NCBI GenBank assembly: GCA_034002785.1
Contig: JAVEZX010000001.1
Span: 2,984-66,983 of the forward strand
DNA: 64,000 nucleotides
Direction: 5' to 3'
DNA from: Bacteroidales bacterium
GTDB taxonomy: Bacteria; Bacteroidota; Bacteroidia; Bacteroidales; VadinHA17
Both the position numbers and the translations under genes were made by a program. The number at the start of each line of letters is the position of its first letter. Positions within the stretch are counted from its first letter, which is position 1. The notes beneath the pieces were generated by a model, which searched no databases, was not told where the DNA came from, and saw only the letters and a program-made list of their open reading frames with translations. Positions 4,519-32,005 of the stretch are shown here, piece after piece.

Positions 4519-7050
4519 ATGAAGAGATGGATCCTATATATTATTTCAGTATTGTTGTCTTTGAGTGCCAATGGGCAGAGCTGTTCCATTCTCTCGAAGG
4601 CTAACAATATAACTCCGGATAAGCTCTGTTCCCCGGTGACTGCCACCTGGACCGTCAGCTATACAGGGGTTAACGATGACGGTTACCCGGTCAGCATCAG
4701 GTATGACTGGAATAATGGCAATGTTATCACGGTTCCTGCCGTTGAGACATCGCCCGGAGTCTTCGAAGCCACTTCAATAAACACCTACACATCAGCAGGT
4801 AACGTCTGCAACTATCATCCTCAGGCAACTCTTATGGTCAACGGGGTACTGTGTACTTCTTCATCCCAGGAACAGATAGTCACCGTCTGGGATGACGATG
4901 ACCACAACGGTGGTCATATGCACATAAACCCGGTAGTATACCCGATATGCTTCGGGAACAGTGCCAACGTCCGTTTTCAGGACCTGACTCAGTTCAACTG
5001 TGTGCCACCGCAGGAGAGGGATAACCCGAACGTCAACACCAGGTGGATACAGTGGATTTACGGTACAGACAACACCATGACCGGGATTCCGCTTACAATT
5101 GACGGGCACAACAGGGCCTTTCCATACATTGACAACGTAATTACGCTTACCGGACCCGTGACCGGATCAGGCGTATGGTCTGACGTGATTTTCGTGGCTA
5201 ATGACAAGCTTATCGGTCAGTATTTTGAGGTGACTCTCCGGAACTGGAACTACTGCAATCCTTATGATGATCCCAAGATCCCGGGACCTCCGCATGACCG
5301 TGACAACGGCGATTATCCGCCGGTGGAAACCACTGCCAGGATACTGATAGTTCCCTACCCAGATGCAACAATCACCCCGGTTAACCCGATGTGCGCAAAT
5401 GCACCCCCGGTAGCATTGTCGGCTGCTGATCCGGGCGGCACCTGGTCCGGAAACGGAGTGAGCGGCAATATATTTGATCCCTCACTGGCCGGCCCCGGAA
5501 ACCATACAATAAGATACAGTGTAACCAACGGTGACGGTTGCAGCGATAATGACCAGACTGTTATAACCGTTTATCCGGTTCCTGATGCCACAATTATCAC
5601 CGCAGGGATTGCATGTTCAACCGACCCGGCAATAACACTTCAGGCACAGGATCCGGGAGGGATATGGTCAGGCACAGGTATCTCGGGAAATATTTTCTAC
5701 CCAGCCATTGCCGGCTCGGGGAATCATATCATAACATATTCAATTACCGATGCAAACGGCTGTACGGATTCGGACTCCGCGATACTTACCGTTGCGACTC
5801 CCGACGCGACAATCAATCCGGTCGATACCCTTTGTGAGGACAGTCCCGCTGTCCCGCTGACCGCGCGTGACCTGGGCGGACTATGGTCAGGACCAGGTGT
5901 CGTGGGTAACCAGTTCATGCCGGCACTGGCCGGAACAGGGAGACATATTATCAGGTATGATATCCTTAATACGGATTGTGCGGCATGGGATACTGTTGTT
6001 ATAACTGTCATGCCGCTGCCTTCCATAATTATTGATGGGCCGGGAACACTTTTCCTGAATGGTCCACCGGTAAGCCTCACAGCCTGGCCCACCGGCGGAA
6101 CCTGGTCAGGGCCTGCTCTCACCGGCAACCAGTTTGATCCTTCTGCGGCAGGCATCGGTAATCATCTGCTGACCTATTCCATACCTCCTGAAAGCTGGGG
6201 TTGTGCAGCGCAGCGCGATGTTTATGTCAGTGTGATCATGCCCCCGATGCCTGTGGCCGATTTTGAAGGTGCAACAACTGGGTGCGCCCCGCTTACAGTA
6301 CAGTTCATCAACAAGAGCCAGCACGGTGAGAGCTATACCTGGGATTTTGGCGACAAGCAGTACTCATCCGATAAAGATCCGGCACACACTTATTTTGTCC
6401 CCGGGACCTACCTGGTGAAACTGACCGTCCACAACATTGCCGGTGAGTCTGTCCGAAACGGGGTAATAACCGTATTCCAGAATCCATCTGCCATCTTTGA
6501 TGCCTACCCCACACATGTGGTAAACAATGAGCAGATAGTGATCTTCTACAGCTATTCATACTTTGCCGAATCATGGCTATGGAGGTTTGGCGACGGAGAG
6601 ACCTCCACCGAGGAGAACCCGTATCACAAATATGAATCGCCCGGATCATATACGGTATCACTTGTAGTCTCCACAAATGAAGGCTGCATTGATTCTGCCG
6701 CCATGGAGACTCCGGTAACGGTTGAATGGAAGACCGGCACCATTAAGTATCCAAATGCCTTCAAATGGAATGAAACAGGCCCCACCGGCGGGGAATGGAC
6801 AGAAGGAATTAATCCATCAATGGATAATGTATTCAGACCGTTTTTTGAGAATGTCATTGAATACAGGCTTCAGATCTTCAACAGGTGGGGAGTGCTGATC
6901 TATGAAAGTTATGACCTTAAAAAGGGGTGGGACGGTTATTTCGGTGCCGGCAACCTGGCACCACAGGGTGTATATGTCTGGAAGGCTACCGGCAGGTATG
7001 CCGACGGAGAGTATTTTGACAAGGTGGGTGATGTGACGTTTCTGCACTGA
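4519..7050 (+). CDS. Secreted multi-domain surface protein: signal peptide, unknown N-domain, 4 tandem ~74-aa Cys-containing repeats, 2 PKD domains, gliding-motility/T9SS type-B C-terminal sorting domain
   Basis: Signal peptide MKRWILYIISVLLSLSANGQ. PKD motifs are WDFGDKQYSS...PAHTYFVPGTYLVKLTV and WRFGDGETST...PYHKYESPGSYTVSLVV. The C-terminus (NVFRPFFENVIEYRLQIFNRWGVLIYES...GWDGYF...APQGVYVWKA) matches the CHU_C/type-B sorting domain pattern. Confidence 0.8.
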   Translation: MKRWILYIISVLLSLSANGQSCSILSKANNITPDKLCSPVTATWTVSYTGVNDDGYPVSIRYDWNNGNVITVPAVETSPGVFEATSINTYTSAGNVCNYHPQATLMVNGVLCTSSSQEQIVTVWDDDDHNGGHMHINPVVYPICFGNSANVRFQDLTQFNCVPPQERDNPNVNTRWIQWIYGTDNTMTGIPLTIDGHNRAFPYIDNVITLTGPVTGSGVWSDVIFVANDKLIGQYFEVTLRNWNYCNPYDDPKIPGPPHDRDNGDYPPVETTARILIVPYPDATITPVNPMCANAPPVALSAADPGGTWSGNGVSGNIFDPSLAGPGNHTIRYSVTNGDGCSDNDQTVITVYPVPDATIITAGIACSTDPAITLQAQDPGGIWSGTGISGNIFYPAIAGSGNHIITYSITDANGCTDSDSAILTVATPDATINPVDTLCEDSPAVPLTARDLGGLWSGPGVVGNQFMPALAGTGRHIIRYDILNTDCAAWDTVVITVMPLPSIIIDGPGTLFLNGPPVSLTAWPTGGTWSGPALTGNQFDPSAAGIGNHLLTYSIPPESWGCAAQRDVYVSVIMPPMPVADFEGATTGCAPLTVQFINKSQHGESYTWDFGDKQYSSDKDPAHTYFVPGTYLVKLTVHNIAGESVRNGVITVFQNPSAIFDAYPTHVVNNEQIVIFYSYSYFAESWLWRFGDGETSTEENPYHKYESPGSYTVSLVVSTNEGCIDSAAMETPVTVEWKTGTIKYPNAFKWNETGPTGGEWTEGINPSMDNVFRPFFENVIEYRLQIFNRWGVLIYESYDLKKGWDGYFGAGNLAPQGVYVWKATGRYADGEYFDKVGDVTFLH
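5359..6246 (+). repeat. Four in-frame tandem protein repeats (starts about 5359, 5581, 5800, 6019; 73-75 aa each) inside the 843-aa protein
   Basis: Recurring pattern PDATIxPVxxxCxxxPxVxLxAxDPGGxWSGxGVxGNxFxPxxAGxGxHxIxYSxT..GC.D.D...ITV, read directly from the translation (residues ~281-576). Confidence 0.75.
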
Positions 7051-8000: not shown

Positions 8001-9719
8001 TTACCATCCGGGATTCTGTTCATAGACGCCGTTGGAAAGGCGGATCTCGGATTCAGGAATCGGAACCAATCCCTTTATTTCGGGGCGGTAGCTGTTCGTG
8101 TATACTGCAGCAACTCCTGAGTTCATTACATTACAGGGAGTTGAGAAGTAGTTTTTGGTAGGATCATCAACATCACCCCATCTTACCAGGTCAAACCACC
8201 TGAGACCCTCGAATGCCAGTTCATAGAGTCTCTCCTTTTTGAGGTTGTCAAGAGAGTAAGTTACCGGATCGAGGCCGACCCTTGCCCTGACCGCATTCAT
8301 TCCTGTTGCAGTTTCGGTAAGTTCGGAGTGCATCAGGAGCACATCGGCATATCTGAGGTAGAAGAAGTCCTGAGCTGTTTCAAGCTGCATGGGGTCACCG
8401 TTGTTCCAGTTGTAGATATAATAGAACATACCTTTCGTACCGTCAGCGCCACCATGCTGCAGGTGTGAGTATTTCTTGTTATACAGGCCGGTTTCATGGT
8501 CACCCTTGTTTGCCTGGTAACCGCCTGTACCCTGTTCTGCCTTGCCCATTTCGAGAACCGATGCAAGTTTCCTGGGATCATCGTTTGACCATGCATTGAA
8601 GAATACCGGGTGAATCGGGCCCCAGCCCCATCCTTCTGCAAAGGGTATCATGGAGTTACCCCTTATGCCGAAGAACAGCGGGATACGGTTGTTGTATTTC
8701 TGACCTTCGCTCCATCCCCAGTTGCCAAATGCATACCTGAGAGCAAACATTACCTCCTTGTTTCCTGTACCTATAGTGGAGTTCGGGCCATCCTGGCCAA
8801 CCCATGCAAGGTTTTCGGTTACTGCCCATGGCAGCACTTCGGTGCCTGCACTTGTGTTTGCATAGGAATAAGGCCACAGGTTGGCGAATTTTGGTGTCAG
8901 TTCATATTTGCTCTTGGTGATCACATCATCAAGGTGTGCAACTACCTGGGCCTTTGTAAGTGATCCGCCTTCAGGAAGAGGAAGTTCTGTGGCTGCCTGG
9001 CCTTCAATGTTTGTCATATAGCCTGTATAGAACAGGAAAGCGCGGGCGATATAAGCTTTCGCAACCCATACGTTGGCGTGTCCGTATTCTGAAAGCGGAG
9101 TCGTAAGGGGGTTGATCTCAGGCATTGTTTCGGCTGCCTTGATGAAGTCAGCTGCTATCTGGCTGAAAGTCTCGGTAAAGGTGGACCGGGGTACGTCGCG
9201 CGGAGAGTCTGTTTTTGGTATGATTGGCATTCCTCCGAAGAACCTTGCGGCCCTGTACATGAAGAAACCTCTCATGAAATAAGCCTCACCCATAGCAGTA
9301 TTGATAAAGTTTGTTGCTTCGGCCTCGGTATTGAAGTAGCTTGAGTAATCAGCGTCCGTGAGAGCTTCGATGATTGCGTTGGTTCTGTAGACACCGTTGT
9401 AGGTCTGTTTCCAGAGGTCACTGTAGGTATCTTCAGTCGGGTCAATGAAGTTATCGCAGTTTTTTGCGGTGATATCATCAGGACCGCCGCCGCCGAGCAT
9501 GTAGTCAGCCATCAGGTTTGCAGAGAGGTGTTCTTCGCTGAACACACCTCCGACATAGAGAGCGTTATAGACACCGCCCATTGCTTCAGTGATATCGGTC
9601 GGCGTTTTATAGAAGTTCGTCAGGTCTTTCTGATACAGGTTGCGTGTATCGAGAAAATCTTCGCAGCCGCTTACCAGCAGGGCCGTCAGGGCAACTATAA
9701 TTAAGGTTATCTTTTTCAT
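8001..9719 (-). CDS. susD: SusD/RagB-family nutrient-binding outer-membrane lipoprotein
   Basis: Lipobox LLVSGCEDFLD, immediately followed by the family-typical DTRNLYQKDL..FY. 572 aa, located 13 bp downstream of susC, with C-terminal RWFDLVRWG and PIPESEI..N motifs typical of SusD-like proteins. Confidence 0.9.
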   Translation of the reverse strand: MKKITLIIVALTALLVSGCEDFLDTRNLYQKDLTNFYKTPTDITEAMGGVYNALYVGGVFSEEHLSANLMADYMLGGGGPDDITAKNCDNFIDPTEDTYSDLWKQTYNGVYRTNAIIEALTDADYSSYFNTEAEATNFINTAMGEAYFMRGFFMYRAARFFGGMPIIPKTDSPRDVPRSTFTETFSQIAADFIKAAETMPEINPLTTPLSEYGHANVWVAKAYIARAFLFYTGYMTNIEGQAATELPLPEGGSLTKAQVVAHLDDVITKSKYELTPKFANLWPYSYANTSAGTEVLPWAVTENLAWVGQDGPNSTIGTGNKEVMFALRYAFGNWGWSEGQKYNNRIPLFFGIRGNSMIPFAEGWGWGPIHPVFFNAWSNDDPRKLASVLEMGKAEQGTGGYQANKGDHETGLYNKKYSHLQHGGADGTKGMFYYIYNWNNGDPMQLETAQDFFYLRYADVLLMHSELTETATGMNAVRARVGLDPVTYSLDNLKKERLYELAFEGLRWFDLVRWGDVDDPTKNYFSTPCNVMNSGVAAVYTNSYRPEIKGLVPIPESEIRLSNGVYEQNPGW

Positions 9720-9732
9720 CGTCGTGCTTTAT

Positions 9733-12700
9733 TTAGAATGTTACACTTGCACCAAACATAACCGTTCTCGGTAACGGATAGAGGCCCAGATCAGCACCTG
9801 TAGCCCAGCTAAAGTCATCCGGAGCATAGCCTACGTCAGGATCCATTCCGTCATACTTTGTGAAAGTAAAGAGGTTATTCACCGATGCATAGACAGATGC
9901 AGTCTTCATCCATTTGACGTTTTTAAGGAGATTGCTGAACCTGTAACCCAGGACCACGTTGCTGACTCTGACAAAATCGGCATCATGCACAAATATATCT
10001 GAGATCAGGTTTGTGTTGCGGGTAGAGGCATAACCGAGTCTCGGTATCCTGTTGGAGGTACCTTCGCCGTGCCAGCGTCCGAAGATCTGGGTGGTATAGT
10101 TCTGGGTGAAGTTATCTGCAAACGATCTGTATGACTGCATCACTTCCATTCCGAACTTACCTACAAGGGTAATATTTGTATAGATTCCCTTGTATTCGGC
10201 ATTCAGCTGGAAGCCCATTTCAAAATCCGGAAGCGGGCTGCCAATCATTACCTTGTCGTCATCGTTAATGAGCCCGTCAAGGTTCTGATCAACGAATTTT
10301 ACATCACCCGGGCGCAGATCCTCGAAATAAGGAAGGCCTTCAGGTGTTACGTATGCATCCACATCATCCTGGTTTTGCAGAAGGCCGTCTGTCTCAAGTC
10401 CGTAGAAGAAGCCGATGGGGAATCCCACTTCAACCCTTGATATGGAGGCAGTTCCCTGTGAAAGCACGTGCCCCGGACCGTTAATAATACCTTCAGCATT
10501 GGCAAGGCGTGTAACCACGTTTTTGTTCTTGGTACCGGTCAGTGTTGCGCCATAGATGAAGTCTGAGACTTCGCCTTTCCAGTTAAGAGTGAATTCAATA
10601 CCGGTGTTTTTTATGTCACCGCCGTTGATAAAGGGAGCGTTTGCACCGGAAGTGCCAAGGATGGGAGCTACAACGAGCCAGTCCCTGGTCATCTTGTTAT
10701 ACCAGTCGATTGACACACCAAGTGCTGAGTTGAATAAGCGGGCGTCAATACCGATATTAAGCTGTTCCGATGTCTCCCATGTCACATCCGGATTTGGTAC
10801 GTTGGCCGGAATAGCTGTAGGTGATGTTACAAGCTTGTCAGGGCCGAAATAGTATCCCTGGTCGAGATAGTCAATATTGGAACTGTAAATGAAGTTATCA
10901 ATACTCTCGTTTCCGTTCTGGCCCCAGCTGGCACGCAGCTTACCGAAGCTGATCCATGGATTGTTCTTCATGAAGTCTTCCTCGGTGAAGATCCATCCGA
11001 GAGATGCTGACGGGAAGTAACCCCAGCGGTTGCCTTTTGAAAAGTTCGAGGAACCGTCAGCACGGAAGGTGGCATCGAAAATGTATTTCTCCTTGAAGTT
11101 GTAGGATACACGTCCGTAGTATGACAACAGTCCGCCGCCCTGGGCAGCCCAGTCAGCTCCCCATGTGTTTATATCACTTATCTGGCCCGCAACCACGTTG
11201 TCAAGGTATGCATAGTCGGGGTTGCCGAAGATCGAATTTGCCTTCCATCCGCCGACGTTGGAATTCAGGATTCTGTCAAGTATTTCATTTCCTGCCAGAA
11301 GGCTGATCTTATGGTCTGCCGCCGTAAATTCATAGGAAACAGTGTTTGTAAGGGTATAGTCTATACCCTGGTACATTGACTGATTCACAGCATCGTTGGC
11401 GTTATTAAACTGAGTGGCAAGCTTGTAGGTAGGAGACCATGATCTGGAATTGCCAAACCATGAGTTTATCCCGAATGATGATCTGATTTTCAGATTCTTG
11501 ATCGGCTCAATGTTGATGTATGCATTACCGGTGACAGTATTGTTCTTTGACCACTGGTAGTTGGAGCGGTTATAAAAGAGAATTGCCAGTGGGTTATGCT
11601 GACCGAGTGAAATTCCCTCTAGCGTGGGGGTAAAGCCGTTCGGGTCCGGAGACTTGTCCCAGTATGCAGGAAGAAGCGGGTTGGTCACCAGGGCATTGTG
11701 GAGATCATTCCAGTATATATTACCTGTTCCCACACCCTTGTTCTGGGAGTTTGTAAATGTGAAGTTCTCCCCGATTGTGATGATGTCACGTGTGGTTCCC
11801 TTAACGAGGACCATCTCGCTGTTCAGACGGGCAGTAAGCCTTTTGTAACCGGCGTTGATGAGGTCACCGCCAAGAATACCGGCCTGGTCAAAGTAGGAAA
11901 CCCCCATTGCGTAGGTCACATCCTTTGATGAACCGGTAATATTAAGGGAGTGATTCTGAACCGGTGCGTTCTTCATTGACATCTCATCAACCCAGTCAGT
12001 ACCTTCCCAGCCATTCTGAAGGCGGGTCCAGATCTCTTCGCCGAGTTGGGTTCCAAGGTTTCCGGGGAAGTTGACCGGGTTATTCAGATAAGAATTGTTT
12101 TTAAGAATTTCTTCCCAGTTGTTTGGCGCGAGCTGGTCATTAGCACGCCCCTCATCCATAATAAACATATACTCCTGTGCGTTGAGTGCGGGAAGCTTTT
12201 TGTAGATGTTCTGCACACCGTAGTAGAAATCATAGGAAATGACAGGGGCAGCGCCCCTTGTTCCTTTCTTGGTTGTAACAAGAATAACCCCGTTGGCAGC
12301 TCTTGATCCGTAAATTGCGGAGGAGGCTGCATCCTTCAGTACATCAATTGACTCGATGTCTGAAGAGTTCAGGTAGTCAATGTTTCCGACGGATACACCG
12401 TCAACAATGTAGAGTGGAGCCGAGTTACCGATTGTGCCAAGGCCCCTGATGGATGCTTTGGTTCCGGCACCCGGTGCACCGCTGTTCCTGGTAACGCTGA
12501 TACCGGTTGCGATACCCTGAAGGGCTTCCATCGCTGTTGAGGTATTCAGCTCGGCGATCTGCTCACCTTTTACGTTCAGGTTGGCACCTGTCACAAGGGC
12601 TTTTTTCTGAACACCGTAACCGATGACAACAACCTCGTCGAGGTCTGTCGGCTCATCAGCCATTGTAACGTTGACTGTTGAGGATGTTACTGTCACCTCA

Positions 12701-12921
12701 ACCGGGGTCATCCCTATAAAGGAGAACCTCAGTGTTGACCCCATTCTTGCAGGAATGGAGAAGGTGCCGTCAACACCGGAGAGAACCCCGGTATTTGTTC
12801 CGACTACCATAATGGTCACCCCGGGGAGAGGACTCCCGTCGGCCTGGTAGGTCACGCGTCCCTGTACCGTAACCTCTTGTGCAACCAGGACCTGGGCAAG
12901 CAATGCAAGGACAAATAGCAT
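9733..12921 (-). CDS. susC: SusC/RagA-family TonB-dependent outer-membrane transporter, separated from its native start codon and promoter by the IS insertion (ORF now begins at native Met6)
   Basis: Carboxypeptidase-regulatory-like domain (VTVQGRVTYQADGSPLPGVTIMV), plug (VVVIGYGVQKKALVTGA, IESIDVLKDAASSAIYGSRAANGVILVTTKKG), a long barrel and a terminal ...FGASVTF. In frame upstream of 12921 the sequence reads ...TGA GGC CGA AAA ACC GCA CAA AAC AGG AAA AAA GCT GTA ATG, so the native ATG is replaced by AGG with a stop 12 codons upstream of that AGG. Confidence 0.85.
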   Translation of the reverse strand: MLFVLALLAQVLVAQEVTVQGRVTYQADGSPLPGVTIMVVGTNTGVLSGVDGTFSIPARMGSTLRFSFIGMTPVEVTVTSSTVNVTMADEPTDLDEVVVIGYGVQKKALVTGANLNVKGEQIAELNTSTAMEALQGIATGISVTRNSGAPGAGTKASIRGLGTIGNSAPLYIVDGVSVGNIDYLNSSDIESIDVLKDAASSAIYGSRAANGVILVTTKKGTRGAAPVISYDFYYGVQNIYKKLPALNAQEYMFIMDEGRANDQLAPNNWEEILKNNSYLNNPVNFPGNLGTQLGEEIWTRLQNGWEGTDWVDEMSMKNAPVQNHSLNITGSSKDVTYAMGVSYFDQAGILGGDLINAGYKRLTARLNSEMVLVKGTTRDIITIGENFTFTNSQNKGVGTGNIYWNDLHNALVTNPLLPAYWDKSPDPNGFTPTLEGISLGQHNPLAILFYNRSNYQWSKNNTVTGNAYINIEPIKNLKIRSSFGINSWFGNSRSWSPTYKLATQFNNANDAVNQSMYQGIDYTLTNTVSYEFTAADHKISLLAGNEILDRILNSNVGGWKANSIFGNPDYAYLDNVVAGQISDINTWGADWAAQGGGLLSYYGRVSYNFKEKYIFDATFRADGSSNFSKGNRWGYFPSASLGWIFTEEDFMKNNPWISFGKLRASWGQNGNESIDNFIYSSNIDYLDQGYYFGPDKLVTSPTAIPANVPNPDVTWETSEQLNIGIDARLFNSALGVSIDWYNKMTRDWLVVAPILGTSGANAPFINGGDIKNTGIEFTLNWKGEVSDFIYGATLTGTKNKNVVTRLANAEGIINGPGHVLSQGTASISRVEVGFPIGFFYGLETDGLLQNQDDVDAYVTPEGLPYFEDLRPGDVKFVDQNLDGLINDDDKVMIGSPLPDFEMGFQLNAEYKGIYTNITLVGKFGMEVMQSYRSFADNFTQNYTTQIFGRWHGEGTSNRIPRLGYASTRNTNLISDIFVHDADFVRVSNVVLGYRFSNLLKNVKWMKTASVYASVNNLFTFTKYDGMDPDVGYAPDDFSWATGADLGLYPLPRTVMFGASVTF

Positions 12922-12934
12922 TACAGCTTTTTTC
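12680..12934. repeat. Left copy of the 255-bp direct repeat (target-site duplication) flanking the IS
   Basis: Base-by-base comparison shows 12680..12934 is identical to 14569..14823 (255/255). Each boundary is ambiguous by 1 nt. Confidence 0.95.
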
Positions 12935-14568
12935 CTGTTTTGTGCGGTTTTTCGGCCTCAAAAAAGTCAACTATTTGATTAATAGCGAATAGAGAGAATT
13001 TTGATTGTAAATGTGGGTGTCTCAGCCTATATTTACTGAATGTTTGTGCGGCAGAAAATAAATAGAAGTGGCAGTGTAAGTGTTCAGATTGTCCAGAAGA
13101 TAGGCCGTATAAACAGAGTTGTGAGGACTATTGGCTGTTCCACTGACCCGGTTGAGTTGGAAGAGCTTCAGAGACTAGCTGAATACGAGAAGGACAGGAT
13201 TTATGGTCCCACTTTATTTGATCCCCGGCCAGTAGAAGATCTTAAGAATGTCACTAATGACTGTATCAGGGTAATCGGGCCTGACCTTGTCTTTAGTGAA
13301 TTGTATGCCCGTATAGGCTTTGATGTTATCGGAGAGCCACTTCTTAAGGCGCTTGCGATATCCCGGCTGACCCATCCCGGGAGCAAGCTTAAATTGAGTG
13401 AATATCTTAGTGTTACTGGGCGTGATAGTATATCGGTGTACTCCATATACCGATTTTTGGACAAGATCAGTGGCAGATATAAATCCCAGATTGAACATCT
13501 TTCGTTTGCCTATACAAAGCGGGTGCTTAACGGAGAGATCGGCATCGTATTCTATGATATGACTACAATCTACTTTGAGAGCAGCCAGCCTGATGATCTC
13601 AGGATCCCGGGGTTCTCCAAAGAAGGCAAACATCATCTTCCTCAGATCTTCTTGGGTTTATTGGTTGGCTGTAATGGATATCCAATTGGATATGACATTT
13701 TTGAGGGCAATATTTTTGAAGGCCACACACTGATCCCGATCCTGGAGAGGTTCGAAAAGCAGTTTTCCATAGGTCATCCAATTGTAGTTGCAGATGCTGG
13801 ATTGCTAAGCAAGTCAAATATCGAAGAGCTGACAAAGCGCAGATACAAATTTATCCTTGGGGCGCGGGTAAAGAATGAAGGAGCCAAAGTGGTCAAGGTT
13901 GTCCAGGGGCGTGAATGGGCAAATGGGGATATGGTTGAATATCTAAAACCTGATGGCAGTCGCCTGATTATCGAGTATACCGAGAGTCGGGCTAAGAAGG
14001 ATGAATTTAACCGCACAAGAGGAATCAGGAAGCTGGAAAAACAGATAAACGCTGGTAAACTGACAAAAAGTAATCTCAACAACAGAGGCTACAACAAGTA
14101 TCTCAAGTTAGAAGGCGATATATCTATCAGCATTGATTATCAGAAGTATGATAATGACAGGAAATGGGATGGTATCAAAGGATACGTTACAAATACTAAT
14201 CTCTCCAGAGAGTTGGTTGTGACCAGATACAGGGATCTGTGGCAAATTGAAAAGGCGTTCCGGATATCAAAGACCGACCTGCAAATAAGGCCAGTATATC
14301 ATCGTCGCAGAGACAGGATTGAATCTCATATATGCATCTCGTTCATGGCTTATCTAATGTACAAGGAGTTAGAGAGGTTGCTATATGCTAATAACCTGAA
14401 AACATCCGTCGAGAAGGCCATTGAGCAGATAAACAAGATATATGAGATTATAATCCCTGGTGATGATGGTAGTCAGTCATCATTTAGGCCACATAACAAT
14501 CCCCTTCAACAAAGAATTATTGAATTAATAAGCTCATCCTAATTTTGGGTGTCTTTCGCACAAAACAG
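12935..14568 (+). mobile_element. IS element, IS1634 family (IS4-related), ~1634 bp, single transposase gene
   Basis: Perfect 13-bp terminal inverted repeats: CCTGTTTTGTGCG (from 12934/12935) and CGCACAAAACAGG (ending 14568/14569). It carries a single 500-aa ORF, is flanked by a long direct repeat, and by eye is more AT-rich than its flanks. Confidence 0.9.
13040..14542 (+). CDS. IS1634-family DDE transposase
   Basis: The N-terminus MFVRQKINRSGSVSVQIVQKIGRINRVVRTIGCS is the pattern I associate with IS1634-group transposases. IVFYDMTTIYFES and VVADAGLLS are DDE-like segments. YRDLWQIEKAFRISK resembles the IS4-superfamily YREK region. Confidence 0.85.
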   Translation: MFVRQKINRSGSVSVQIVQKIGRINRVVRTIGCSTDPVELEELQRLAEYEKDRIYGPTLFDPRPVEDLKNVTNDCIRVIGPDLVFSELYARIGFDVIGEPLLKALAISRLTHPGSKLKLSEYLSVTGRDSISVYSIYRFLDKISGRYKSQIEHLSFAYTKRVLNGEIGIVFYDMTTIYFESSQPDDLRIPGFSKEGKHHLPQIFLGLLVGCNGYPIGYDIFEGNIFEGHTLIPILERFEKQFSIGHPIVVADAGLLSKSNIEELTKRRYKFILGARVKNEGAKVVKVVQGREWANGDMVEYLKPDGSRLIIEYTESRAKKDEFNRTRGIRKLEKQINAGKLTKSNLNNRGYNKYLKLEGDISISIDYQKYDNDRKWDGIKGYVTNTNLSRELVVTRYRDLWQIEKAFRISKTDLQIRPVYHRRRDRIESHICISFMAYLMYKELERLLYANNLKTSVEKAIEQINKIYEIIIPGDDGSQSSFRPHNNPLQQRIIELISSS

Positions 14569-14825
14569 GAGGATGTTACTGTCACCTCAACCGGGGTCAT
14601 CCCTATAAAGGAGAACCTCAGTGTTGACCCCATTCTTGCAGGAATGGAGAAGGTGCCGTCAACACCGGAGAGAACCCCGGTATTTGTTCCGACTACCATA
14701 ATGGTCACCCCGGGGAGAGGACTCCCGTCGGCCTGGTAGGTCACGCGTCCCTGTACCGTAACCTCTTGTGCAACCAGGACCTGGGCAAGCAATGCAAGGA
14801 CAAATAGCATTACAGCTTTTTTCAT
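14517..14825 (-). pseudogene. Orphan 5' fragment of susC (native ATG plus ~85 codons) reading into the IS right end
   Basis: MKKAVMLFVLALLAQVLVAQEVTVQGRV...VTVTSS, then IS-derived CFVRKTPKIRMSLLIQ*. From the third base of the native start codon, positions 14823..14569 are identical to 12934..12680. Confidence 0.9.
14569..14823. repeat. Right copy of the 255-bp direct repeat (target-site duplication)
   Basis: Identical to 12680..12934. Confidence 0.95.
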
Positions 14826-17831: not shown

Positions 17832-19397
17832 ATGAAAATGCAATCTCTCATTCTTGCAGCCACAGCAGCGGTACTTGTGACCGGTTGTGCAGGCAGCGCC
17901 TCTGAGCCGACAGATCTTGCCAGAAACAGCATCATCCCGAAACCGGTTTCAGTAACTGCCACCGGAGAATCATTCACCCTGACCCAGAAAAGCGACATTT
18001 ATGTCATGCCGGGCGCTCCGGCTGAACTTGCATTCATTGGAAACTACCTTGCAGAAAAGCTGAATCCCTCCACAGGTCTTGACCTGAAGGTGATCACAGA
18101 TGGCGGCAAGCCAGGCAGGGGAGACATTCTTCTCAGCCTTAAGGAGGGGGACCCCGAGCTCGGAGATGAGGGATACGAGCTTGTAATAACAGATAAGTTA
18201 ATCACCGTCAACGCAAACAAACCGGCAGGAGTCTTTTACGGTATCCAGACGGTAAGGTTGTTGCTGCCCCATGAAGTTGAAGCCGGTACCCTTCAGGAAG
18301 TGCCCTGGGTAATTCCCACCGGGACAATACGCGATTATCCCTCGTACGGATATCGCGGGGTTATGCGTGATGTGGCACGTCACTTCTTCGGCCCGGAGGA
18401 TATCAAGAGTTACATTGACCAGCTGGCTCTGTACAAGATCAATGTTTTGCATATGCACCTCTCGGATGACCAGGGATGGAGGATAGAGATCAAATCATGG
18501 CCCAACCTGACGGCCCATGGCGGCAAAACAGAGGTTGGCGGCGGTGAAGGCGGCTTCTATACCCAGGAAGAGTATTCTGATATCGTAAAGTACGCTGCTG
18601 ACAGGTTTATTACAATCATTCCCGAGATTGACATGCCGGGTCATACAAACGCAGCTCTCTCATCTTACCCTGAGCTCAACATGGACGGAAAGGCTCCGGA
18701 GCCTTACACAGGAACTAATGTGGGATTCAGTACTCTTGACACCCGTTCAGAAATCACCTACAAATTTGTGGATGACGTGGTGCGTGAGATCGCAGCACTG
18801 ACCCCGGGGGAGTATTTCCATATAGGGGGAGACGAATCACATTCAACCAAAATTGATGACTACATCTATTTTGTCAACAGGGTGCAGGATATAGTTGAGT
18901 CACACGGGAAGAAAGTCATAGGGTGGGATGAGATTGCCCATTCAACCCTGAAGCCAGGCGCTGTTGTCCAGTACTGGGCACGGGCCGAGAATGCAATCAA
19001 AGGGATCAGCCAGGGGGCGAAGGTGCTGATGTCACCGTCCAAGTATGCCTATTCCGATATGCAGTATGACACTGCCTCTGTTTTCGGACTGCACTGGGCG
19101 GCCTACATCGAGGTCGATGATGCGTACAACTGGGATCCCGCCACACTGGTCCCCGAGATCACAAGGGAAAACATCGTCGGGGTTGAGGCTCCGCTCTGGG
19201 CTGAGACTATTTCAACCGAAAAAGAGGCTCAATACCTTATCTATCCGCGTCTTCCGGGGTATGCCGAGATCGGTTGGACCCAGGCATGGATGCGCAGCTG
19301 GGAGGAGTACAGGACACGTCTTGCCTCGCACGGGAAGCGCATGCAGATAATGGATATAAACTTCTACCGCTCCCCACTGGTTGACTGGGAACCCTAG
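17832..19397 (+). CDS. Beta-N-acetylhexosaminidase, GH20, lipoprotein
   Basis: Lipobox LVTGCAGS. GH20 catalytic region NVLHMHLSDDQGWRIEIKSWPNLT and HIGGDE (D-E pair). Confidence 0.9.
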   Translation: MKMQSLILAATAAVLVTGCAGSASEPTDLARNSIIPKPVSVTATGESFTLTQKSDIYVMPGAPAELAFIGNYLAEKLNPSTGLDLKVITDGGKPGRGDILLSLKEGDPELGDEGYELVITDKLITVNANKPAGVFYGIQTVRLLLPHEVEAGTLQEVPWVIPTGTIRDYPSYGYRGVMRDVARHFFGPEDIKSYIDQLALYKINVLHMHLSDDQGWRIEIKSWPNLTAHGGKTEVGGGEGGFYTQEEYSDIVKYAADRFITIIPEIDMPGHTNAALSSYPELNMDGKAPEPYTGTNVGFSTLDTRSEITYKFVDDVVREIAALTPGEYFHIGGDESHSTKIDDYIYFVNRVQDIVESHGKKVIGWDEIAHSTLKPGAVVQYWARAENAIKGISQGAKVLMSPSKYAYSDMQYDTASVFGLHWAAYIEVDDAYNWDPATLVPEITRENIVGVEAPLWAETISTEKEAQYLIYPRLPGYAEIGWTQAWMRSWEEYRTRLASHGKRMQIMDINFYRSPLVDWEP

Positions 19398-22174
19398 AAA
19401 TCGCCTTCGGCATTGCCGAAGATCCTGAAGTTGTAGGTCAGCATAAAGATGGGCTTTGCAAAGATTGTCATCTGGTAGCCTTTGATAAAGCCGTTCTCAT
19501 TCTTGAAAAATATCGAATAGGGATTCTTCCTTCCGAGGACGTTGTAAACCGTGGCGGTAAACGAAGAGTGGTTCAGTTTTTTGGCCTGGAGGTTGCCGTT
19601 TATCGTGGCAGCCAGGTCAAGCCTCATGTAATAAGGTATACGGTAGTCATTCCTGTTGGAATAGTATACGTGAGTTGAGTTGTAGAACTGGTAGAACGCC
19701 ACAGGGTATGTGATAGGTCTTCCGGAGCTGTAAACGAAGTTGGATGTCAGGTTGAACCGCCTTGAGGCCTTTGCATTCAGGACTATCTTCAGGTCATGAG
19801 GTTTATCGTAGTTGGCAGGGAAGTATCTTCCCCTGTTGACCTTTTCCTCCTCAAACTGGCCGTCTACCTTCATGAAGACTCTTGACCAGGTATAGCTGAC
19901 CCAGCCAGTGAGGCTGCCGGACTGTTTTTTCAGCATCAGTTCCACGCCGTAGGCCTTGCCGTCGCCGTTTATAATATCTGCTTCGAGGGCCGGGTTCATG
20001 AGCAGTTCGGCGCCTCCCTTATAGTCAAGGGTGTTGGTGAGCCATTTGTAGTATCCCTCAACGGAGGTTTCGATGGCCCGTTTGTCAAAGTTGAAATACA
20101 ATCCGGCTGATACCTGGTCACCTTTCTGAGGCCTTATGTATGTGTCGCTCAGCTTCCAGATATCGACGGGGGACATCGAGGTAGTGTTTGAGATCATGTG
20201 GAGGTACTGGTATGCTCTCTGTGCTCCGATCTTCAGTGAGGCGCCGGGGCCCATCATGAAGCGGGAGGAGAATCTGAAGTCGAGGCCCGGGTAGGTGCTT
20301 ACAATATCTTTTTTTGAGTAAGCCACCGTATCCGTTATTGTTTCGGTGCTTCTGGGCAGTCCATCGGCATAAATGAATTCGCTGCGCGGACCGAAGCTTG
20401 TATAGAGTGTTCCCCTCACCCCGGCGGATACTGAAAGCCAGGGAGTGATCTCAATCTCGTCGCTGAGGTAGAGTGAGGGTTCAAGTGCCTTTTCGCTCTG
20501 CAATTCCATCGGAATTGCTTCCGAAAAGTCGCCTAATGGTTCTCGTCTGCCCGGCTCAAGTGAGTAAAGCGTGGCATCAAAACCAAACTCCATCCTGTTT
20601 TTGGCTGAGCTGAGGAATGTAAAATCGGCTCTGCCTATCTTCTGGTCCAGCCTGTAATATGTATTGCTGGATTCAAGCGAATCGGCTGATGATGTCAGCC
20701 GGTAGCTGTAGTTGCTCAGGATGGCGAAATACTGGCCTGTAAGTCTTTTGCCGAAGGAGTGTTTCCATTTGAGGGTAGCGGCAGTGTTACCGTATCTGAA
20801 ACCGCTCTCCATGAAGTAATCGAACCTGTCGTCACTGTAATATCCGGAGAGAGAGACAGAGTTTTTCTCGTTTATGTCGGCGGTGAGGCTTCCCTGGAGA
20901 TCATAGAATCCGGCGGAGCTCTTCTTCAGCCTCTCATCGTTGAGCATACCAAGAAGCCAGTCGGAGTAGGTGGAGCGGGCGCCGATTATAAAGGAGACCT
21001 TATCGCTGAAGAGCGGGCCGTCAATCATCAGCCTGCCGGTAACGGGACTGATGCCACCGCTTACCTTTACCTTGTCACGGTTGCCCTCTGCCGGGATTAT
21101 CTCCATCACGGAAGAGAGTCTTCCCCCGTATTTTGCCGGCATGCCGCTCTTGAAAAGGGTTACGTCTGTAATCATGTCAGAGTTGAAGGCCGAAAAGAAG
21201 CCAAAGAAGTGCGATGAATTTATTATCGGGGCATAGTTCAGCAGGACAAGGTTCTGGTCAGTGCTGCCGCCACGCACGTTGAAGCCTGCCGATGCCTCAC
21301 CCACCGTCTGGATGCCCGGCAGCATAAGGGTGCTCTTAAGCAGGTCCGCCTCTCCGAGGCCGAGGGGTATCTGCTTAAGCATCTTTACGCTTATCTTTTC
21401 AGTTCCCATCCGTGTGTTTCTGACGTTGTTGTCACGGTTGGCCGAGATAAATACCGCATCAATCTCGCTGGGGCTCTCCGTCAGTGATACATCGAGGGAG
21501 CCGTCAGAATAGATCAGCACATTCCTGATGGCGGATTTCATTCCCATCATCCTGTATTCGATCCTGTACTGGCCGGGAGGAAGGGAGAGCGAGTAGAAGC
21601 CGGTACTGTTGGTCATTGCGCCTGAACGGAGCTTCTCAACATAGACAACCACACTCTGCATTCCCGTGCCGTCAAAGGCATCCCTGACCACACCGGTGAG
21701 GGTGACTCTTTCCGGCATCCCTTCGGAAGAGGGCCTGCCTATCCTGAAGAGCCGGTAATCATCGCTGACCACAGACTGCTCATCCTGAGCGGCAGGCCTC
21801 AGGAATTCAGCCGAGGCCGCCTCTGCATACCTTTCCCTGATATAGGTCTCATACTCCCTGGCAAAGTTTGTCTTGATGGCGTAGCCTTTCGACAGAATGA
21901 TCCTGTTGTCAGGGGTGATCATGAACAGCAGGCCGTCACGCCGGAGGTTGTTGTCAAGCACCCCCTCAAGTGTGGCATTCTCGGCAGAGACATTGAGATA
22001 GAGTGAGTCGGTCCACCTGGGTGAATAATAGACCCTTACCGGTACTTTCCTTTCGAGTGTATCAACGAAGTCATCAAAGAGAATCCTGTTGAACTGGAAG
22101 GTAAGGTTGTTGACCTGACCGGATGTGTACAGTGAAATTCCAAGCAAAACCGTTATCAGGAGGTTCTTTTTCAT
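19394..22174 (-). CDS. TonB-dependent receptor with N-terminal STN-like domain and carboxypeptidase-regulatory-like domain
   Basis: Signal peptide. The STN-like segment is LTFQFNRILFDDFVDTLERKVPVRVYY...LEGVLDNNLRRDGLLFMITPDNRIIL. The CarboxypepD_reg segment is VTLTGVVRDAFDGTGMQSVVVYVE...GFYSLSLPPGQYRIEY. There is also a plug-like region, and the barrel ends in ...AEGDF. Confidence 0.8.
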   Translation of the reverse strand: MKKNLLITVLLGISLYTSGQVNNLTFQFNRILFDDFVDTLERKVPVRVYYSPRWTDSLYLNVSAENATLEGVLDNNLRRDGLLFMITPDNRIILSKGYAIKTNFAREYETYIRERYAEAASAEFLRPAAQDEQSVVSDDYRLFRIGRPSSEGMPERVTLTGVVRDAFDGTGMQSVVVYVEKLRSGAMTNSTGFYSLSLPPGQYRIEYRMMGMKSAIRNVLIYSDGSLDVSLTESPSEIDAVFISANRDNNVRNTRMGTEKISVKMLKQIPLGLGEADLLKSTLMLPGIQTVGEASAGFNVRGGSTDQNLVLLNYAPIINSSHFFGFFSAFNSDMITDVTLFKSGMPAKYGGRLSSVMEIIPAEGNRDKVKVSGGISPVTGRLMIDGPLFSDKVSFIIGARSTYSDWLLGMLNDERLKKSSAGFYDLQGSLTADINEKNSVSLSGYYSDDRFDYFMESGFRYGNTAATLKWKHSFGKRLTGQYFAILSNYSYRLTSSADSLESSNTYYRLDQKIGRADFTFLSSAKNRMEFGFDATLYSLEPGRREPLGDFSEAIPMELQSEKALEPSLYLSDEIEITPWLSVSAGVRGTLYTSFGPRSEFIYADGLPRSTETITDTVAYSKKDIVSTYPGLDFRFSSRFMMGPGASLKIGAQRAYQYLHMISNTTSMSPVDIWKLSDTYIRPQKGDQVSAGLYFNFDKRAIETSVEGYYKWLTNTLDYKGGAELLMNPALEADIINGDGKAYGVELMLKKQSGSLTGWVSYTWSRVFMKVDGQFEEEKVNRGRYFPANYDKPHDLKIVLNAKASRRFNLTSNFVYSSGRPITYPVAFYQFYNSTHVYYSNRNDYRIPYYMRLDLAATINGNLQAKKLNHSSFTATVYNVLGRKNPYSIFFKNENGFIKGYQMTIFAKPIFMLTYNFRIFGNAEGDF

Positions 22175-28569: not shown

Positions 28570-29130
28570 ATGCATGATCCTGACGCCAATCTCTACTTCA
28601 TAGCCCTGGTTCCCGGGAAGGAACTGAGGGATAGGGTACTCATGATCAAGGAAAGAATGAAGGCGGAATTTAATGCAGGCCATGCATTGAAATCACCGGC
28701 ACACATTACGTTACAGATGCCCTTCAGGAGGAAGACAGCCGCGGAACAGTCCATCATAGAAGAACTCGACCGGTTTACAGCGGGCGTAGCCCCATTTCAT
28801 CTGCATCTTGACGGTTTCGGATGCTTTGCTCCCAGGGTTATTTTCATCAAACTGGTCAACCCGGATCCTGTCATTGAACTGCACCGTCGGCTTAAGGCAA
28901 TTCTCCTGGAAAGCCTTGGTTTTGACGACAGCGAAATCATGAAGAGCGTCCAGCCTCATATGACGGTTGCCACGAGAGATCTTACGAAGCAGGCCTTTGC
29001 AGAAGCCTGGCCTGAATATCAGGATGAGGAATTCATCGGGTCATTCCGGGTGAACAGCCTCTTCCTGCTGAAGCATAACGGAAGGCACTGGGACATATTC
29101 AGGGAGTTTCAATTCCGTGCAGATGGATAG
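28570..29130 (+). CDS. 2H phosphoesterase superfamily protein (LigT/2'-5' RNA ligase-like)
   Basis: Two H-x-T/S-x motifs are present: AHITLQ and PHMTVA. I chose ATG 28570, 5 nt after the nhaA stop. Confidence 0.7.
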   Translation: MHDPDANLYFIALVPGKELRDRVLMIKERMKAEFNAGHALKSPAHITLQMPFRRKTAAEQSIIEELDRFTAGVAPFHLHLDGFGCFAPRVIFIKLVNPDPVIELHRRLKAILLESLGFDDSEIMKSVQPHMTVATRDLTKQAFAEAWPEYQDEEFIGSFRVNSLFLLKHNGRHWDIFREFQFRADG

Positions 29131-32005
29131 GAGAAGGTTCATATCGGGAAGCACCCTGGCGGCGGCGTGGTGGATGATACCCGGCCGGCTGTCACTGATT
29201 GCATCCTCACCTTCGGATCCGGTGTTGCATCCAGCCGGCAGCGGATTGTATGAGCTGTTCCGTGACCCTGCCTCCGGCTATAGGCCTTTCGTAAGGTGGT
29301 GGTGGAACGGCAACAAGGTTGAAGCAGGCGAACTGGTAAGGGAGCTTCAGCTGCTGAAGGCGGCAGGTATCGGAGGGGTTGAGATCAATCCGGTGGCGTT
29401 CCCTTCAAGATTTAAGGGTGATGACCTGGGCAGGCCTTCCCTCAGATGGCTCAGCGAAGAATGGAGCGCGATGCTGGCGGTGACCTTTGAGGAGGCGAAG
29501 AGGCTTGGGATGACCTGCGATCTGATCGTTGGATCGGGATGGCCTTTCGGCTCCGAAGATCTCGCCGAAGAGGAGTGGTCACAGATCGTTGTGATAGCAG
29601 TGAAAAAGCTGACAGGTCCTCTCACTCATCCGGTTTCCCGCGATGAGATTTTCCTGGAGGCGGGACCGGCTGTCAGCTCTCCCCGGACAGGGAGGAAGCA
29701 TACTTTGTTGTCTTTGCTGCTGGTTCCTGATCCGCTCTCCACAACTGATGAGATCACTGACCTGTCAGACAGGAGAGAAGAGGAGTACTTTGACATTTTT
29801 ATCCCGGAGGGTGATCATGCGCTTTATGCACTTGTGCAGGTGAGCGGTTTCATGGAGGTGATCAACGGCACCCCGGGTGCCAGCGGCCCGGTGCTGGATC
29901 ACTACAATGAGAAGGCAGTCAGGAGGTACCTGGGTGAAATGTCCGGTACCATTGAGTCTGTGACAGGACCGCTGTCATCACACCTGCGTGCCCTGTTTAC
30001 TGACAGCATGGAGCTCGAGGGATCCAACTGGACCGGTGACATGAGGGAGGAATTTTTCAGGCGTCGTGGTTATGACATTTATCCTTTCCTGCCCTTCATT
30101 CTCTTCAGGACAGGCTCAATGGGGAATGTCACAGACTGGAACTACGGATCCGGATTCAGCCCGGTAATCAGGGATATGATCAGCCGGATGCGGTATGATT
30201 TTGAGACAACAAAGGCCGAACTGCTTGAGGAGAGATTCCTGAAAAGCTTTGCGCTGTGGTGCAGTGATCTGGGCGTCAGATCACGCATGCAGGCCTATGG
30301 CAGGGGCTTCTTCCCGCTGGAGAGCAGCATGGCCGTGGATATTCCCGAGGGGGAGTCATGGACCATGAACTGGCTCAAGCACCGGATAGGAGAGGAGATG
30401 CCCGAGAGCGACTACCGCCGCGGCAGAGCCTATACAATGGTCAACAAATACGTCTCATCCGCAGCGCACCTTGCTGGCAAAAGGCTTATAAGCTGCGAGG
30501 AGATGACCGACACGTACACCGTCTTCAATACATCACTTGAAAATCTGAAGGTGGGCAGTGACCAGAGCATAATCTCCGGGGTAACACATTCAGTATTCCA
30601 CGGGTTCAATTACTCCCCGCCGGAAGCACCGTGGCCGGGATGGATAAGGTACGGCGGGTATTTCAATGAGAATAATACCTGGTGGCCTCATTTTCATCTT
30701 CTGAACGAGTATAAGGCACGACTTTCGGCATTGCTGCAGCACTGTGACATGTATGCCGGTATTGCCCTTCTGCCGCCGACTGCTGATATGTGGAGCCTGA
30801 TCGGGATGCAGAATGAGCCTTTCCCGTCAGTGCTTCATGCCGAGCATCTCTCACTTGTATGGGAGGCAATTGCGAAAAACGGCAGCGGCTGTGACTATAT
30901 ATCCGAAAGAATTCTGCAGAATGCTACTGTTAAGGGAAGGAAGCTCTGTTACGGGCCACGTAAATACAACACACTGATCCTGGTAAGTGTGGAGAGCCTT
31001 TCGCCGTCGAGCGCACGCAAGCTGCTGCAGTTTGTAAGAGCGGGAGGAAAGGTCTTCTGTATTGACACAGTTCCCTCAAAAGTGGCCGGATGGAGTGATC
31101 ATGAAAGAAATGATGCCTCCGTCAGACTGATGATTGAAAAGATGAAAGCATACCCGAACCGGTTTATTGTGCTAAAAAAGCCGGAAAATGACTATATAGG
31201 TTGGTACAGAACAGTTCAGGAACGGTACCGCATTGAATCATGGCTGAAAATTGAAGATCCTGATCCTTTCCTTATGCAGACGAGGTACAGTGGGCCGGAC
31301 GGATCGGAATACATCTTCATAGCTTACTCTCATTTGCACAATTCCCACAGGACACGGGTAATTTTCTCCGAGGCACTTACAAGGCGTCACAGCTGCTCTG
31401 TATGGATCCCGGAAACGGGAGAAAGGAAGCGGGTGCAGCTTGATCCGGATGGAGGCCTGACCATCGACCTTGGTCCGGCCGACTCGTTGCTGTTTGCCTT
31501 TGACCGTGTGAAGGCTGAGGAGGAGTGGAGACCGCTGCCTGTGGCCGGCAATGAGATGCAGACGCTTGAAGAAGACTGGACTGTGGAGTTCAGGCATTGC
31601 CGCGACGTATCCGTAAGAGAGATCGGGATGGAGAGACCTACCGACCTTAAGGAGATATCGGAATTCCTAAACTTTGCCGGAACGGTGACCTACAGGAACA
31701 GGCTGGTTTGTGAAGACCCTGCAGGAACCGTGCTGAACCTGGGCAAAGTATACGGAACTTCCGAGCTCAGGATTAACGGCGAGAGCTGCGGTGTGAAGTG
31801 GTATGGCCGCAGGATTTTTAACATCGGCAAATACATGAAATGCGGAACAAACCTGGTTGAGGTCATCGTAACCACTTCCATGGGCAACTATATGAAATCA
31901 CTTGATGACAATCCCGTAGCACAGTACTGGACGAATGCCGGAACGAAAAATCAGCCTCTTCAGTCGATGGGAATGACGGGACCTGTCAGTTATTATAAAA
32001 TCTGA
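29123..32005 (+). CDS. Large glycoside hydrolase, GH106-like (alpha-L-rhamnosidase-type) with a jelly-roll C-terminal domain and a Tat-type signal
   Basis: Twin-arginine leader MDRRRFISGSTLAAAWW. FVRWWWNGNKVE...LKAAGIGGVEINPV is the N-terminal pattern I associate with Glyco_hydro_106. The C-terminal galactose-binding-like segment is LNLGKVYGTSELRINGESCGVKWYG. The family assignment is from memory only. Confidence 0.55.
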   Translation: MDRRRFISGSTLAAAWWMIPGRLSLIASSPSDPVLHPAGSGLYELFRDPASGYRPFVRWWWNGNKVEAGELVRELQLLKAAGIGGVEINPVAFPSRFKGDDLGRPSLRWLSEEWSAMLAVTFEEAKRLGMTCDLIVGSGWPFGSEDLAEEEWSQIVVIAVKKLTGPLTHPVSRDEIFLEAGPAVSSPRTGRKHTLLSLLLVPDPLSTTDEITDLSDRREEEYFDIFIPEGDHALYALVQVSGFMEVINGTPGASGPVLDHYNEKAVRRYLGEMSGTIESVTGPLSSHLRALFTDSMELEGSNWTGDMREEFFRRRGYDIYPFLPFILFRTGSMGNVTDWNYGSGFSPVIRDMISRMRYDFETTKAELLEERFLKSFALWCSDLGVRSRMQAYGRGFFPLESSMAVDIPEGESWTMNWLKHRIGEEMPESDYRRGRAYTMVNKYVSSAAHLAGKRLISCEEMTDTYTVFNTSLENLKVGSDQSIISGVTHSVFHGFNYSPPEAPWPGWIRYGGYFNENNTWWPHFHLLNEYKARLSALLQHCDMYAGIALLPPTADMWSLIGMQNEPFPSVLHAEHLSLVWEAIAKNGSGCDYISERILQNATVKGRKLCYGPRKYNTLILVSVESLSPSSARKLLQFVRAGGKVFCIDTVPSKVAGWSDHERNDASVRLMIEKMKAYPNRFIVLKKPENDYIGWYRTVQERYRIESWLKIEDPDPFLMQTRYSGPDGSEYIFIAYSHLHNSHRTRVIFSEALTRRHSCSVWIPETGERKRVQLDPDGGLTIDLGPADSLLFAFDRVKAEEEWRPLPVAGNEMQTLEEDWTVEFRHCRDVSVREIGMERPTDLKEISEFLNFAGTVTYRNRLVCEDPAGTVLNLGKVYGTSELRINGESCGVKWYGRRIFNIGKYMKCGTNLVEVIVTTSMGNYMKSLDDNPVAQYWTNAGTKNQPLQSMGMTGPVSYYKI

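Follow-up and report, generated by a model that had tools for sequence, protein, structure and literature searches.

Elements of the IS1634 family of bacterial insertion sequences (IS) are described as 1,500-2,000 bp long, with one open reading frame (ORF) and terminal inverted repeats (IRs) whose ends follow the consensus C-----YT (PMC2266710, Table 1), and their target duplications are usually AT-rich and 5-6 bp long (PMC2266710). Duplications of 6 bp were observed experimentally for ISPfe2 (PMC3281130) and for ISGka5 (PMC8024623). Exactly two members, IS1549 and IS1634, are documented as producing long variable direct repeats of 8-514 bp (PMC2266710), which agrees with the statement in a first-pass annotation that IS1634 of Mycoplasma mycoides makes long repeats of variable length; no mechanistic model for these repeats existed as of 2008 (PMC2266710). 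Here, we analysed a 64,000-nt stretch of a genome of the Bacteroidales (VadinHA17; contig JAVEZX010000001.1, hereafter the window) in which an IS1634-family element interrupts the 5' end of a susC gene between long, identical direct repeats. This arrangement is very probably the product of a genuine single-step transposition, with two strand transfers 253 bp apart on opposite strands in 5' polarity, followed by gap filling.

The segments 12680-12934 and 14569-14823 of the window are identical at all 255 positions, as the first-pass annotation had counted, and a repeat finder placed their starts 1,889 nt apart. A scan of the whole window returned them as the sole direct or inverted repeat of at least 30 nt, so that a chance origin of the 255-nt repeat is excluded. 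The element, CCTG...CAGG, occupies positions 12934-14569 (+ strand) and is 1,636 bp long, with tips ambiguous by 1-2 nt, or 1,634 bp if the shared tip C/G is assigned to the target. It is bounded by a perfect 13-bp inverted repeat, with CCTGTTTTGTGCG at 12934-12946 (+) on the left and the reverse complement of it at 14557-14569 (-; CGCACAAAACAGG on the + strand) on the right, which reaches 14 nt when the flanking T/A is included. The tip CCTGTTTT stands at both ends and is conserved among relatives. Since the outermost base of each 13-nt IR doubles as the terminal base of the 255-nt identity, the true target duplication is 253 bp long (range 251-255). The earlier description of a 255-bp target-site duplication with an element of ~1,634 bp exactly between its copies was thus correct as to the 255 identical nucleotides and the perfect IRs, and needs amending in that the duplication proper is 253 bp and that a position exactly between the repeats is incompatible with 13-bp IRs. 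At the left junction the end of the repeat meets the IS as …CAGCTTTTTT/CCTGTTTTG, and at the right junction the IS meets the start of the repeat as …AAAACAGG/AGGATGTT (slashes mark joints here and below). Rfam and tRNA scans of the window gave no matches.

The only ORF of the element, at 13040-14542 (+), is intact and encodes a DDE-type transposase of 500 amino acids (aa), the single 500-aa product already noted in the first pass. With 354.6 bits (cut-off 100; E=1e-105), it matched the NCBIfam model NF033559 ('IS1634 family transposase') over positions 3-479 of 483, while the next best IS family, IS4, reached 40 bits, under its own cut-off, and all other families scored far below theirs. The Pfam domain DDE_Tnp_1 (PF01609) covers residues 169-440 (E=1.5e-16). 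By inspection, we assigned candidate catalytic residues to the D of FYDMTT, the D of VVADAG and the E of WQIEK; the second D is separated from the E by ~150 aa, which fits a DDE domain of the IS4 superfamily type. The YREK region, read from the protein sequence as YRDLWQIEKAFRISK, has the form Y-(6)-E-(6)-K, with Leu where the motif has Arg, and this Arg is kept in only 5 of 32 IS1634-family members (PMC2266710). The closest annotated plasmid records found by tblastn in PLSDB carry only the label 'IS1634 family transposase'. Together with the published family size, the single ORF and the C-----YT tips, all of which the element shares, these profile scores uphold its assignment to the IS1634 family; the alternative, raised at the outset, of another family with short duplications is not borne out by them, and long duplications are documented within the IS1634 family itself. 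With its 253 bp, the element departs from the usual duplication length and agrees with the two exceptions.

The interrupted gene encodes a TonB-dependent receptor in which a CarbopepD_reg_2 domain, at the N-terminus, and a Plug domain were recognised; with the SusD-family gene that comes next, it forms the SusC/SusD pair of a polysaccharide-utilisation locus (PUL). Its native ATG lies at 14825-14823 (-), and the repeat starts at the G and spans codons 2-85 plus 2 nt, matching the first report of a duplication of about 85 codons beginning at the third base of the start codon. The closest SusC orthologues share 90-92% aa identity and have 1,065 aa (orthologues 1,063-1,068 aa). In three syntenic orthologous loci (L047-L049), with the shared order GH20, acyltransferase, CDP-alcohol phosphatidyltransferase, a 373-aa GNAT-like protein, SusC and SusD, the IS is absent and the 255-bp target segment is present once, not twice. 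In the DNA alignment, window positions 19500 to 14569 correspond to L048 324 to 5257 and window positions 12934 to 7308 to L048 5003 to 10626; the single-copy segment L048 5003-5257 is the counterpart of the repeat, and both alignment breakpoints fall at its ends. Because the IS-free orthologues are single-copy and the breakpoints coincide with the repeat ends, we regard the repeat as a real target-site duplication. The target letters at both integration points are also conserved in the orthologues (ATGAAAAAAGC and ...TCCTC/AACAG).

An identical transposase occurs on two short contigs from other sequencing runs, on which the whole IS is 99.9% identical to that of the window: one (L001) carries the same IS with different flanks, and the other (L002) is the bare element collapsed into a 1,641-nt contig. 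We conclude that, in related communities, the element is mobile or has more than one copy. These 99.9% identities and the 0 mismatches in 253 positions of the repeat make it plausible that the insertion is very recent; the first-pass annotation had stated as much from the missing divergence, which stands as an observation, with recency itself a plausible reading of it.

We then compared the upstream with the downstream flanks of relatives collected from species-representative genomes (43 loci) and from metagenome contigs (the best 80 of 185 relatives), which share 44-97% aa identity with the transposase and stem almost all from metagenome-assembled genomes (MAGs) of Bacteroidota. Direct repeats of 25-451 bp flanked 16 additional insertions, most of them from Bacteroidota MAGs and metagenome contigs, and two more in a closed Persicobacter genome. 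Those of the MAG and metagenome relatives adjoin the CCTG/CAGG tips within 0-1 nt, and their lengths are 451 bp (L004, the same insertion as L057; 90% aa identity), 294 bp (L036), 236 bp (L021; copies 97.9% identical), 221 bp (L013), 149 bp (L060), 112 bp (L019), about 96 bp (L035), 92 bp (L078), 91 bp (L050; 97% aa identity), 76 bp (L022; copies about 98% identical), 68 bp (L023; copies 98.6% identical), 60 bp (L100), 45 bp (L059; with L060 at 88-89% aa identity), 37 bp (L030), 28 bp (L025) and 25 bp (L017). Even among closely related elements the length varies, as the 253 bp of the window and those of L050, L004, L059 and L060 illustrate, and several repeat pairs have diverged to 97.6-99.9% identity. 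Long duplication by this family in a Bacteroidota host, originally put forward from the single locus, is strengthened by the 18 insertions, and the flanks of other copies show the same architecture throughout a range of 25-682 bp. Most relatives have inserted at gene ends or in intergenic A/T tracts, so that restoration of ORFs across rebuilt empty sites was uninformative. The contig names of the MAG behind L036 point to a long-read assembly; here the repeat of 294 bp touches the right tip exactly and the left CCTG tip lies 23 nt away (AGTTACGTTTTCCTATTTTTCTT, L036 2874-2896); those 23 nt are absent after the second repeat copy. Three short contigs, L003 (2,588 nt), L055 (2,249 nt) and L102 (1,869 nt), carry an IS relative and overlap at their termini by 77, 141 and 99 nt, values commonly used as assembler k, and appear as circles of the IS plus 875, 472 and 133 nt of non-IS DNA; most likely they are de Bruijn graph loops of the repeat-IS-repeat structure that could be mistaken for small circular elements.

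Members of the family on finished replicons were found by tblastn against PLSDB. Persicobacter psychrovividus plasmids pPP1 and pPP7 (47% identity) carry abutting repeats, which measure 406 bp with copies 99.5% identical in the former and 33 bp in the latter, and in Aliarcobacter cryaerophilus pCNAC48 (L132, NZ_CP099557.1; 40% identity) positions 2205-2886 and 4621-5302 form a repeat of 682 bp with 99.85% identity. A Crp/Fnr regulator gene is doubled by this repeat over most of its length, and its copies appear in the record as two separate coding sequences (CDSs); the transposase CDS of the element is annotated at only 380 aa and is apparently truncated. A search for the empty site of the 682-bp repeat gave partial matches only. 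Actinobacterial plasmid elements with CCTG tips (~30% identity) have repeats of 45 bp (Mycobacterium), 58 bp (Actinomyces) and 148 bp (Rhodococcus). Besides the window, this gives 22 independent insertions with abutting direct repeats of 25-682 bp. Proteobacterial family members, which served as controls in the same scan, had no long repeats, and where their tips were clear their duplications were 5-6 bp (CGCCCA in Cupriavidus, TTAAC(A) in Sulfitobacter). A rough neighbour-joining (NJ) tree, which is indicative only, had two branches, one with the long-repeat elements of Bacteroidota, Aliarcobacter and Actinomycetota and the other with the proteobacterial elements that make short duplications.

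The bases flanking the tips follow a mirrored pattern. Next to the tip, the left flank has T at a frequency of 0.91 (n=77 distinct flanks) and the right flank A at 0.86 (n=81), against a background of 0.31; the second base is Y on the left and R on the right at ~0.95, and the next three are T- or A-rich at 0.5-0.6. After reverse-complementing one side, both profiles coincide as TTTYT/CCTG, giving TTTYT/CCTG...CAGG/ARAAA overall. The duplication reaches the left tip or 1 nt into the IS in all 17 repeat-bearing loci analysed and the right tip in 16 of them, the exception being L021, where the diverged repeat ended the exact extension early. As the duplications include the tract bases, these derive from the target and not from the IS, and we rejected the alternative that the IS tip itself extends into the T-run. 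A single 5-nt duplication cannot be T-rich on its left and A-rich on its right, which fits two separate integration points. Seen along the transferred strands, 5'-ARAAA follows each 3' end of the IS (...CAGG). For the window insertion, these sites correspond to the Lys-Lys codons that follow the ATG (AT/GAAAAAAGC) and, 253 bp into the gene, to a run of purines (...CATCCTC/AACAG). The pattern suggests that the two IS ends pick their target sites independently.

We propose that an intact, autonomous IS1634-family element transposed into the 5' end of susC, whereby both of its 3' ends would have been joined to opposite target strands with a 5' stagger of 253 bp, one joint lying at the start codon and the other after codon 85. 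Host repair synthesis would then have filled the two 253-nt single-stranded gaps, leaving identical direct repeats that adjoin the IS tips. In this branch of the family the stagger would not be fixed; as each end appears to choose its own A/T tract, the duplication length would equal the distance between the two chosen sites. We further suggest, tentatively and as a possibility somewhat short of probable, that long variable duplications of 25 to ~700 bp are the norm for a deep branch of the IS1634 family, arising from ends that integrate independently next to 5'-ARAAA and from host fill-in. Members of this long-repeat branch come from Bacteroidota, Campylobacterota and Actinomycetota in our analysis, and from Mycoplasma by published report only.

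For the host, the insertion has split the gene. The left repeat copy (12680-12934), equivalent to L048 5003-5257, is joined to the susC body, with the A and T of the start codon missing; the right copy (14569-14823) is joined to the native susC promoter region and start codon. The susC body at 9733-12921 (-) could still encode 1,062 aa from an internal ATG (12921), with matches to PF13715 and PF07715 and without the native MKKAV; it is separated from its native upstream region, and the IS tip just upstream holds an in-frame stop. At the other end, an ORF at 14517-14825 (-) uses the native start codon and comprises 102 aa, ~86 of them SusC residues and 16 encoded by the IS. The native promoter and ATG would thus now drive only this fragment, and the body, probably together with susD behind it, has been parted from its promoter; missing from the body are also the first two bases of the start codon (A and T) and MKKAV, with which the signal peptide began. 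The partner gene susD (8001-9719, -; PF07980, PF14322) lies downstream of susC in an operon-like arrangement, as in the IS-free relatives, so that susC and susD expression is probably lost and the PUL is most likely switched off. The transposase gene runs divergent from susC. The 253-bp repeats should permit precise reversion by homologous recombination, excising the element.

Three other origins of the arrangement have to be weighed. The assembly could be at fault, with two IS variants 253 bp apart, or an empty site and an IS copy elsewhere, threaded into a false loop of repeat, IS and repeat. An exact repeat of 255 bp exceeds usual k-mers and read lengths, the three apparent circles indicate that the architecture does form graph loops, and the IS sits at another site in the related sample L001. 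Exact-protein look-ups, moreover, returned no record for SusD, the 102-aa SusC-IS fusion ORF or the 1,062-aa susC ORF and thereby no independent assembly of either junction. The GNAT neighbour led to nothing more than a contig of 1,276 nt (L046), which breaks off 14 nt into the repeat and is uninformative here. Yet the window is contiguous through the IS for 64 kb, and the same architecture recurs in closed isolate replicons and in the probable long-read MAG. A graph loop cannot yield diverged repeat pairs, of which several were seen, and the variant with two insertions needs ordinary short duplications, none of which (at least 5 nt) was present in any well-flanked relative. Given the finished genomes, the likely long-read MAG and the diverged repeats, the phenomenon itself is not an artefact, and for the window we consider an artefact unlikely.

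The remaining two explanations accept the junctions and differ in the order of events. IS-mediated duplications through recombination between copies are known in general, and two same-orientation insertions 253 bp apart, for instance on sister chromosomes, followed by unequal homologous recombination, would result in the same end structure. Each case would demand two rare neighbouring insertions, yet at least 22 other independent loci show repeats of 25-682 bp; remnants of ordinary short duplications, which this course of events predicts, were not seen, and the long repeats of IS1549 and IS1634 form in a single step according to the work cited in PMC2266710. With no short duplications and so many recurrences, we rejected this origin as very improbable. 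Alternatively, the 5' end of susC might have been tandemly duplicated beforehand and an ordinary IS later inserted at the junction, a course that has nothing in its favour beyond being formally possible. The segment is single-copy in the three syntenic IS-free loci, with the breakpoints at the repeat ends, the IS tips meet both repeat boundaries to the nucleotide, and the 120 best SusC orthologues listed, judged by length alone, are mostly 1,052-1,082 aa, with a few shorter partials and two longer proteins (1,153 and 1,175 aa). As the orthologues are single-copy, we rejected a pre-existing duplication, to which we assign hardly any probability.

Several points weigh against the single-step transposition with its proposed consequences. 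The junctions in the window are those of an assembly, and short-read assemblers struggle with an exact repeat of 255 bp on both sides of an IS that may be multicopy. The staggered cuts are reconstructed solely from the products of insertion. Of the 23 insertions flanked on either side by 1 kb or more, 14 carry an abutting long repeat and nine (L008, L016, L018, L053, L058, L068, L075, L092 and L101) have neither a long repeat nor a short duplication of at least 5 nt; either the long-repeat rule is not universal, or later rearrangements have erased the repeats. In these nine, copies may have recombined, the locus may have been rearranged later, one repeat may have been lost, or the repeats may exceed the flank in length. 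As to expression, an exact-match search found no TAnnTTTG box reading from the left end of the IS into susC, and a sigma-70 promoter and terminator scan around the IS gave nothing better than shuffled sequences; the search for an outward promoter toward susC consisted of these two scans only, and the loss of expression is accordingly put as probable.

Some further features of the element and its surroundings were observed. A conserved subterminal motif occurs near each IS end, TAAATGTGGGTGTCT at 13008-13022 (+), ~20 nt upstream of the transposase ATG, and TAATTTTGGGTGTCT at 14540-14554 (+), 23 nt inside the right tip. The two share the core (A/T)TGGGTG(T/A)C at 13015-13021 and 14547-14553 as a direct, not inverted, repeat; among 84 relatives, the left-end motif begins 80-82 nt inside the tip in 64 and the right-end motif lies 23 nt inside the tip in 79. 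The motif could be a transposase-binding site or a promoter element. The right-end copy contains TAATTTTG (14540-14547, +; 22 nt from the right tip), which points outward and matches the Bacteroidetes -7 consensus TAnnTTTG; transcription from it could run into the flanking DNA, antisense to the susC fragment and the GNAT-like gene. The transposase's C-terminus, ...PLQQRIIELISSS (window 14498-14539), includes QQRIIELI, which loosely resembles the clamp-binding motifs QLxLF and QxxIxxFF. Other IS1634-family transposases bind the beta clamp or PCNA via a C-terminal motif (PMC4549789), and one may speculate that such a C-terminus aids long duplications by recruiting processive gap repair. Elsewhere in the window, the product of the ORF at 4519-7050 (+) has a PKD domain and a CHU_C signal for type IX secretion, and long ORFs of 926-962 aa lie at 19394-22174 (-), 29117-32005 (+), 38924-41785 (-) and 43534-46338 (-); the orthologue of 19394-22174 in L048/L049 has CarboxypepD_reg and Plug matches. 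None of these five ORFs contains a copy of the IS.

Long target duplications of this kind bear on several questions. The long variable duplications of IS1634 and IS1549 have been without a model since 1998-99 (PMC2266710), and the comparative set could make this old mechanistic question testable, with 23 independent insertions (25-682 bp), mirrored A/T tracts and a proteobacterial contrast. The set further shows that the textbook figure of 5-6 bp fails for a large part of the IS1634 family. If long duplications are indeed the norm, every insertion would bring its own homology arms, and knock-outs such as that of susC would be precisely reversible by RecA recombination. In this genome, a PUL is probably turned off by a very recent event that could be undone through the 253-bp repeats. 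Such elements cause loops in assembly graphs, from which contigs emerge broken or, at 1.8-2.6 kb, falsely 'circular'; annotators call the doubled gene fragments as separate genes, as with the two Crp/Fnr CDSs of pCNAC48.

Among described systems, IS1549 and IS1634 stand closest. IS1549 is said to measure 1,634 bp, with 11-bp IRs and repeats of 71-246 bp, and IS1634 reportedly about 1.87 kb. IS1549 of Mycobacterium smegmatis (Plikaytis et al. 1998, cited in PMC2266710) resembles the element of the window in family, in its single DDE transposase of ~500 aa, in short IRs and in long variable repeats; transposition of the window element is deduced from sequence. The actinobacterial relatives, in the plasmids of Mycobacterium, Actinomyces and Rhodococcus, share the CCTG tip, have 45-148-bp repeats and fall on the same branch of the rough NJ tree, while they differ from the window element in that protein identity is ~29-31%, the window element has a low-GC host of another phylum, and the IRs diverge beyond the tip. 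IS1634 of Mycoplasma mycoides subsp. mycoides SC (Vilei et al. 1999, likewise cited in PMC2266710) is the family namesake and has long variable repeats as well; it differs in its Mycoplasma host and larger size, the comparison being with its description only. The proteobacterial elements of the ISPfe2, ISGka5 and ISAzo6 type belong to the same NCBIfam/ISfinder family and also have a DDE transposase and a single ORF, but show 5-6-bp duplications, a length of ~1.9 kb, other tips and a position on the other branch of the rough tree. A literature search with incomplete coverage returned no description of long IS1634-family duplications in Bacteroidota. The window element thus agrees with the IS1634 family in every feature we compared except the usual duplication length, and there it matches IS1634 and IS1549. 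Long repeats were already known for these two elements; what is new is the comparative set and the mirrored target motif.

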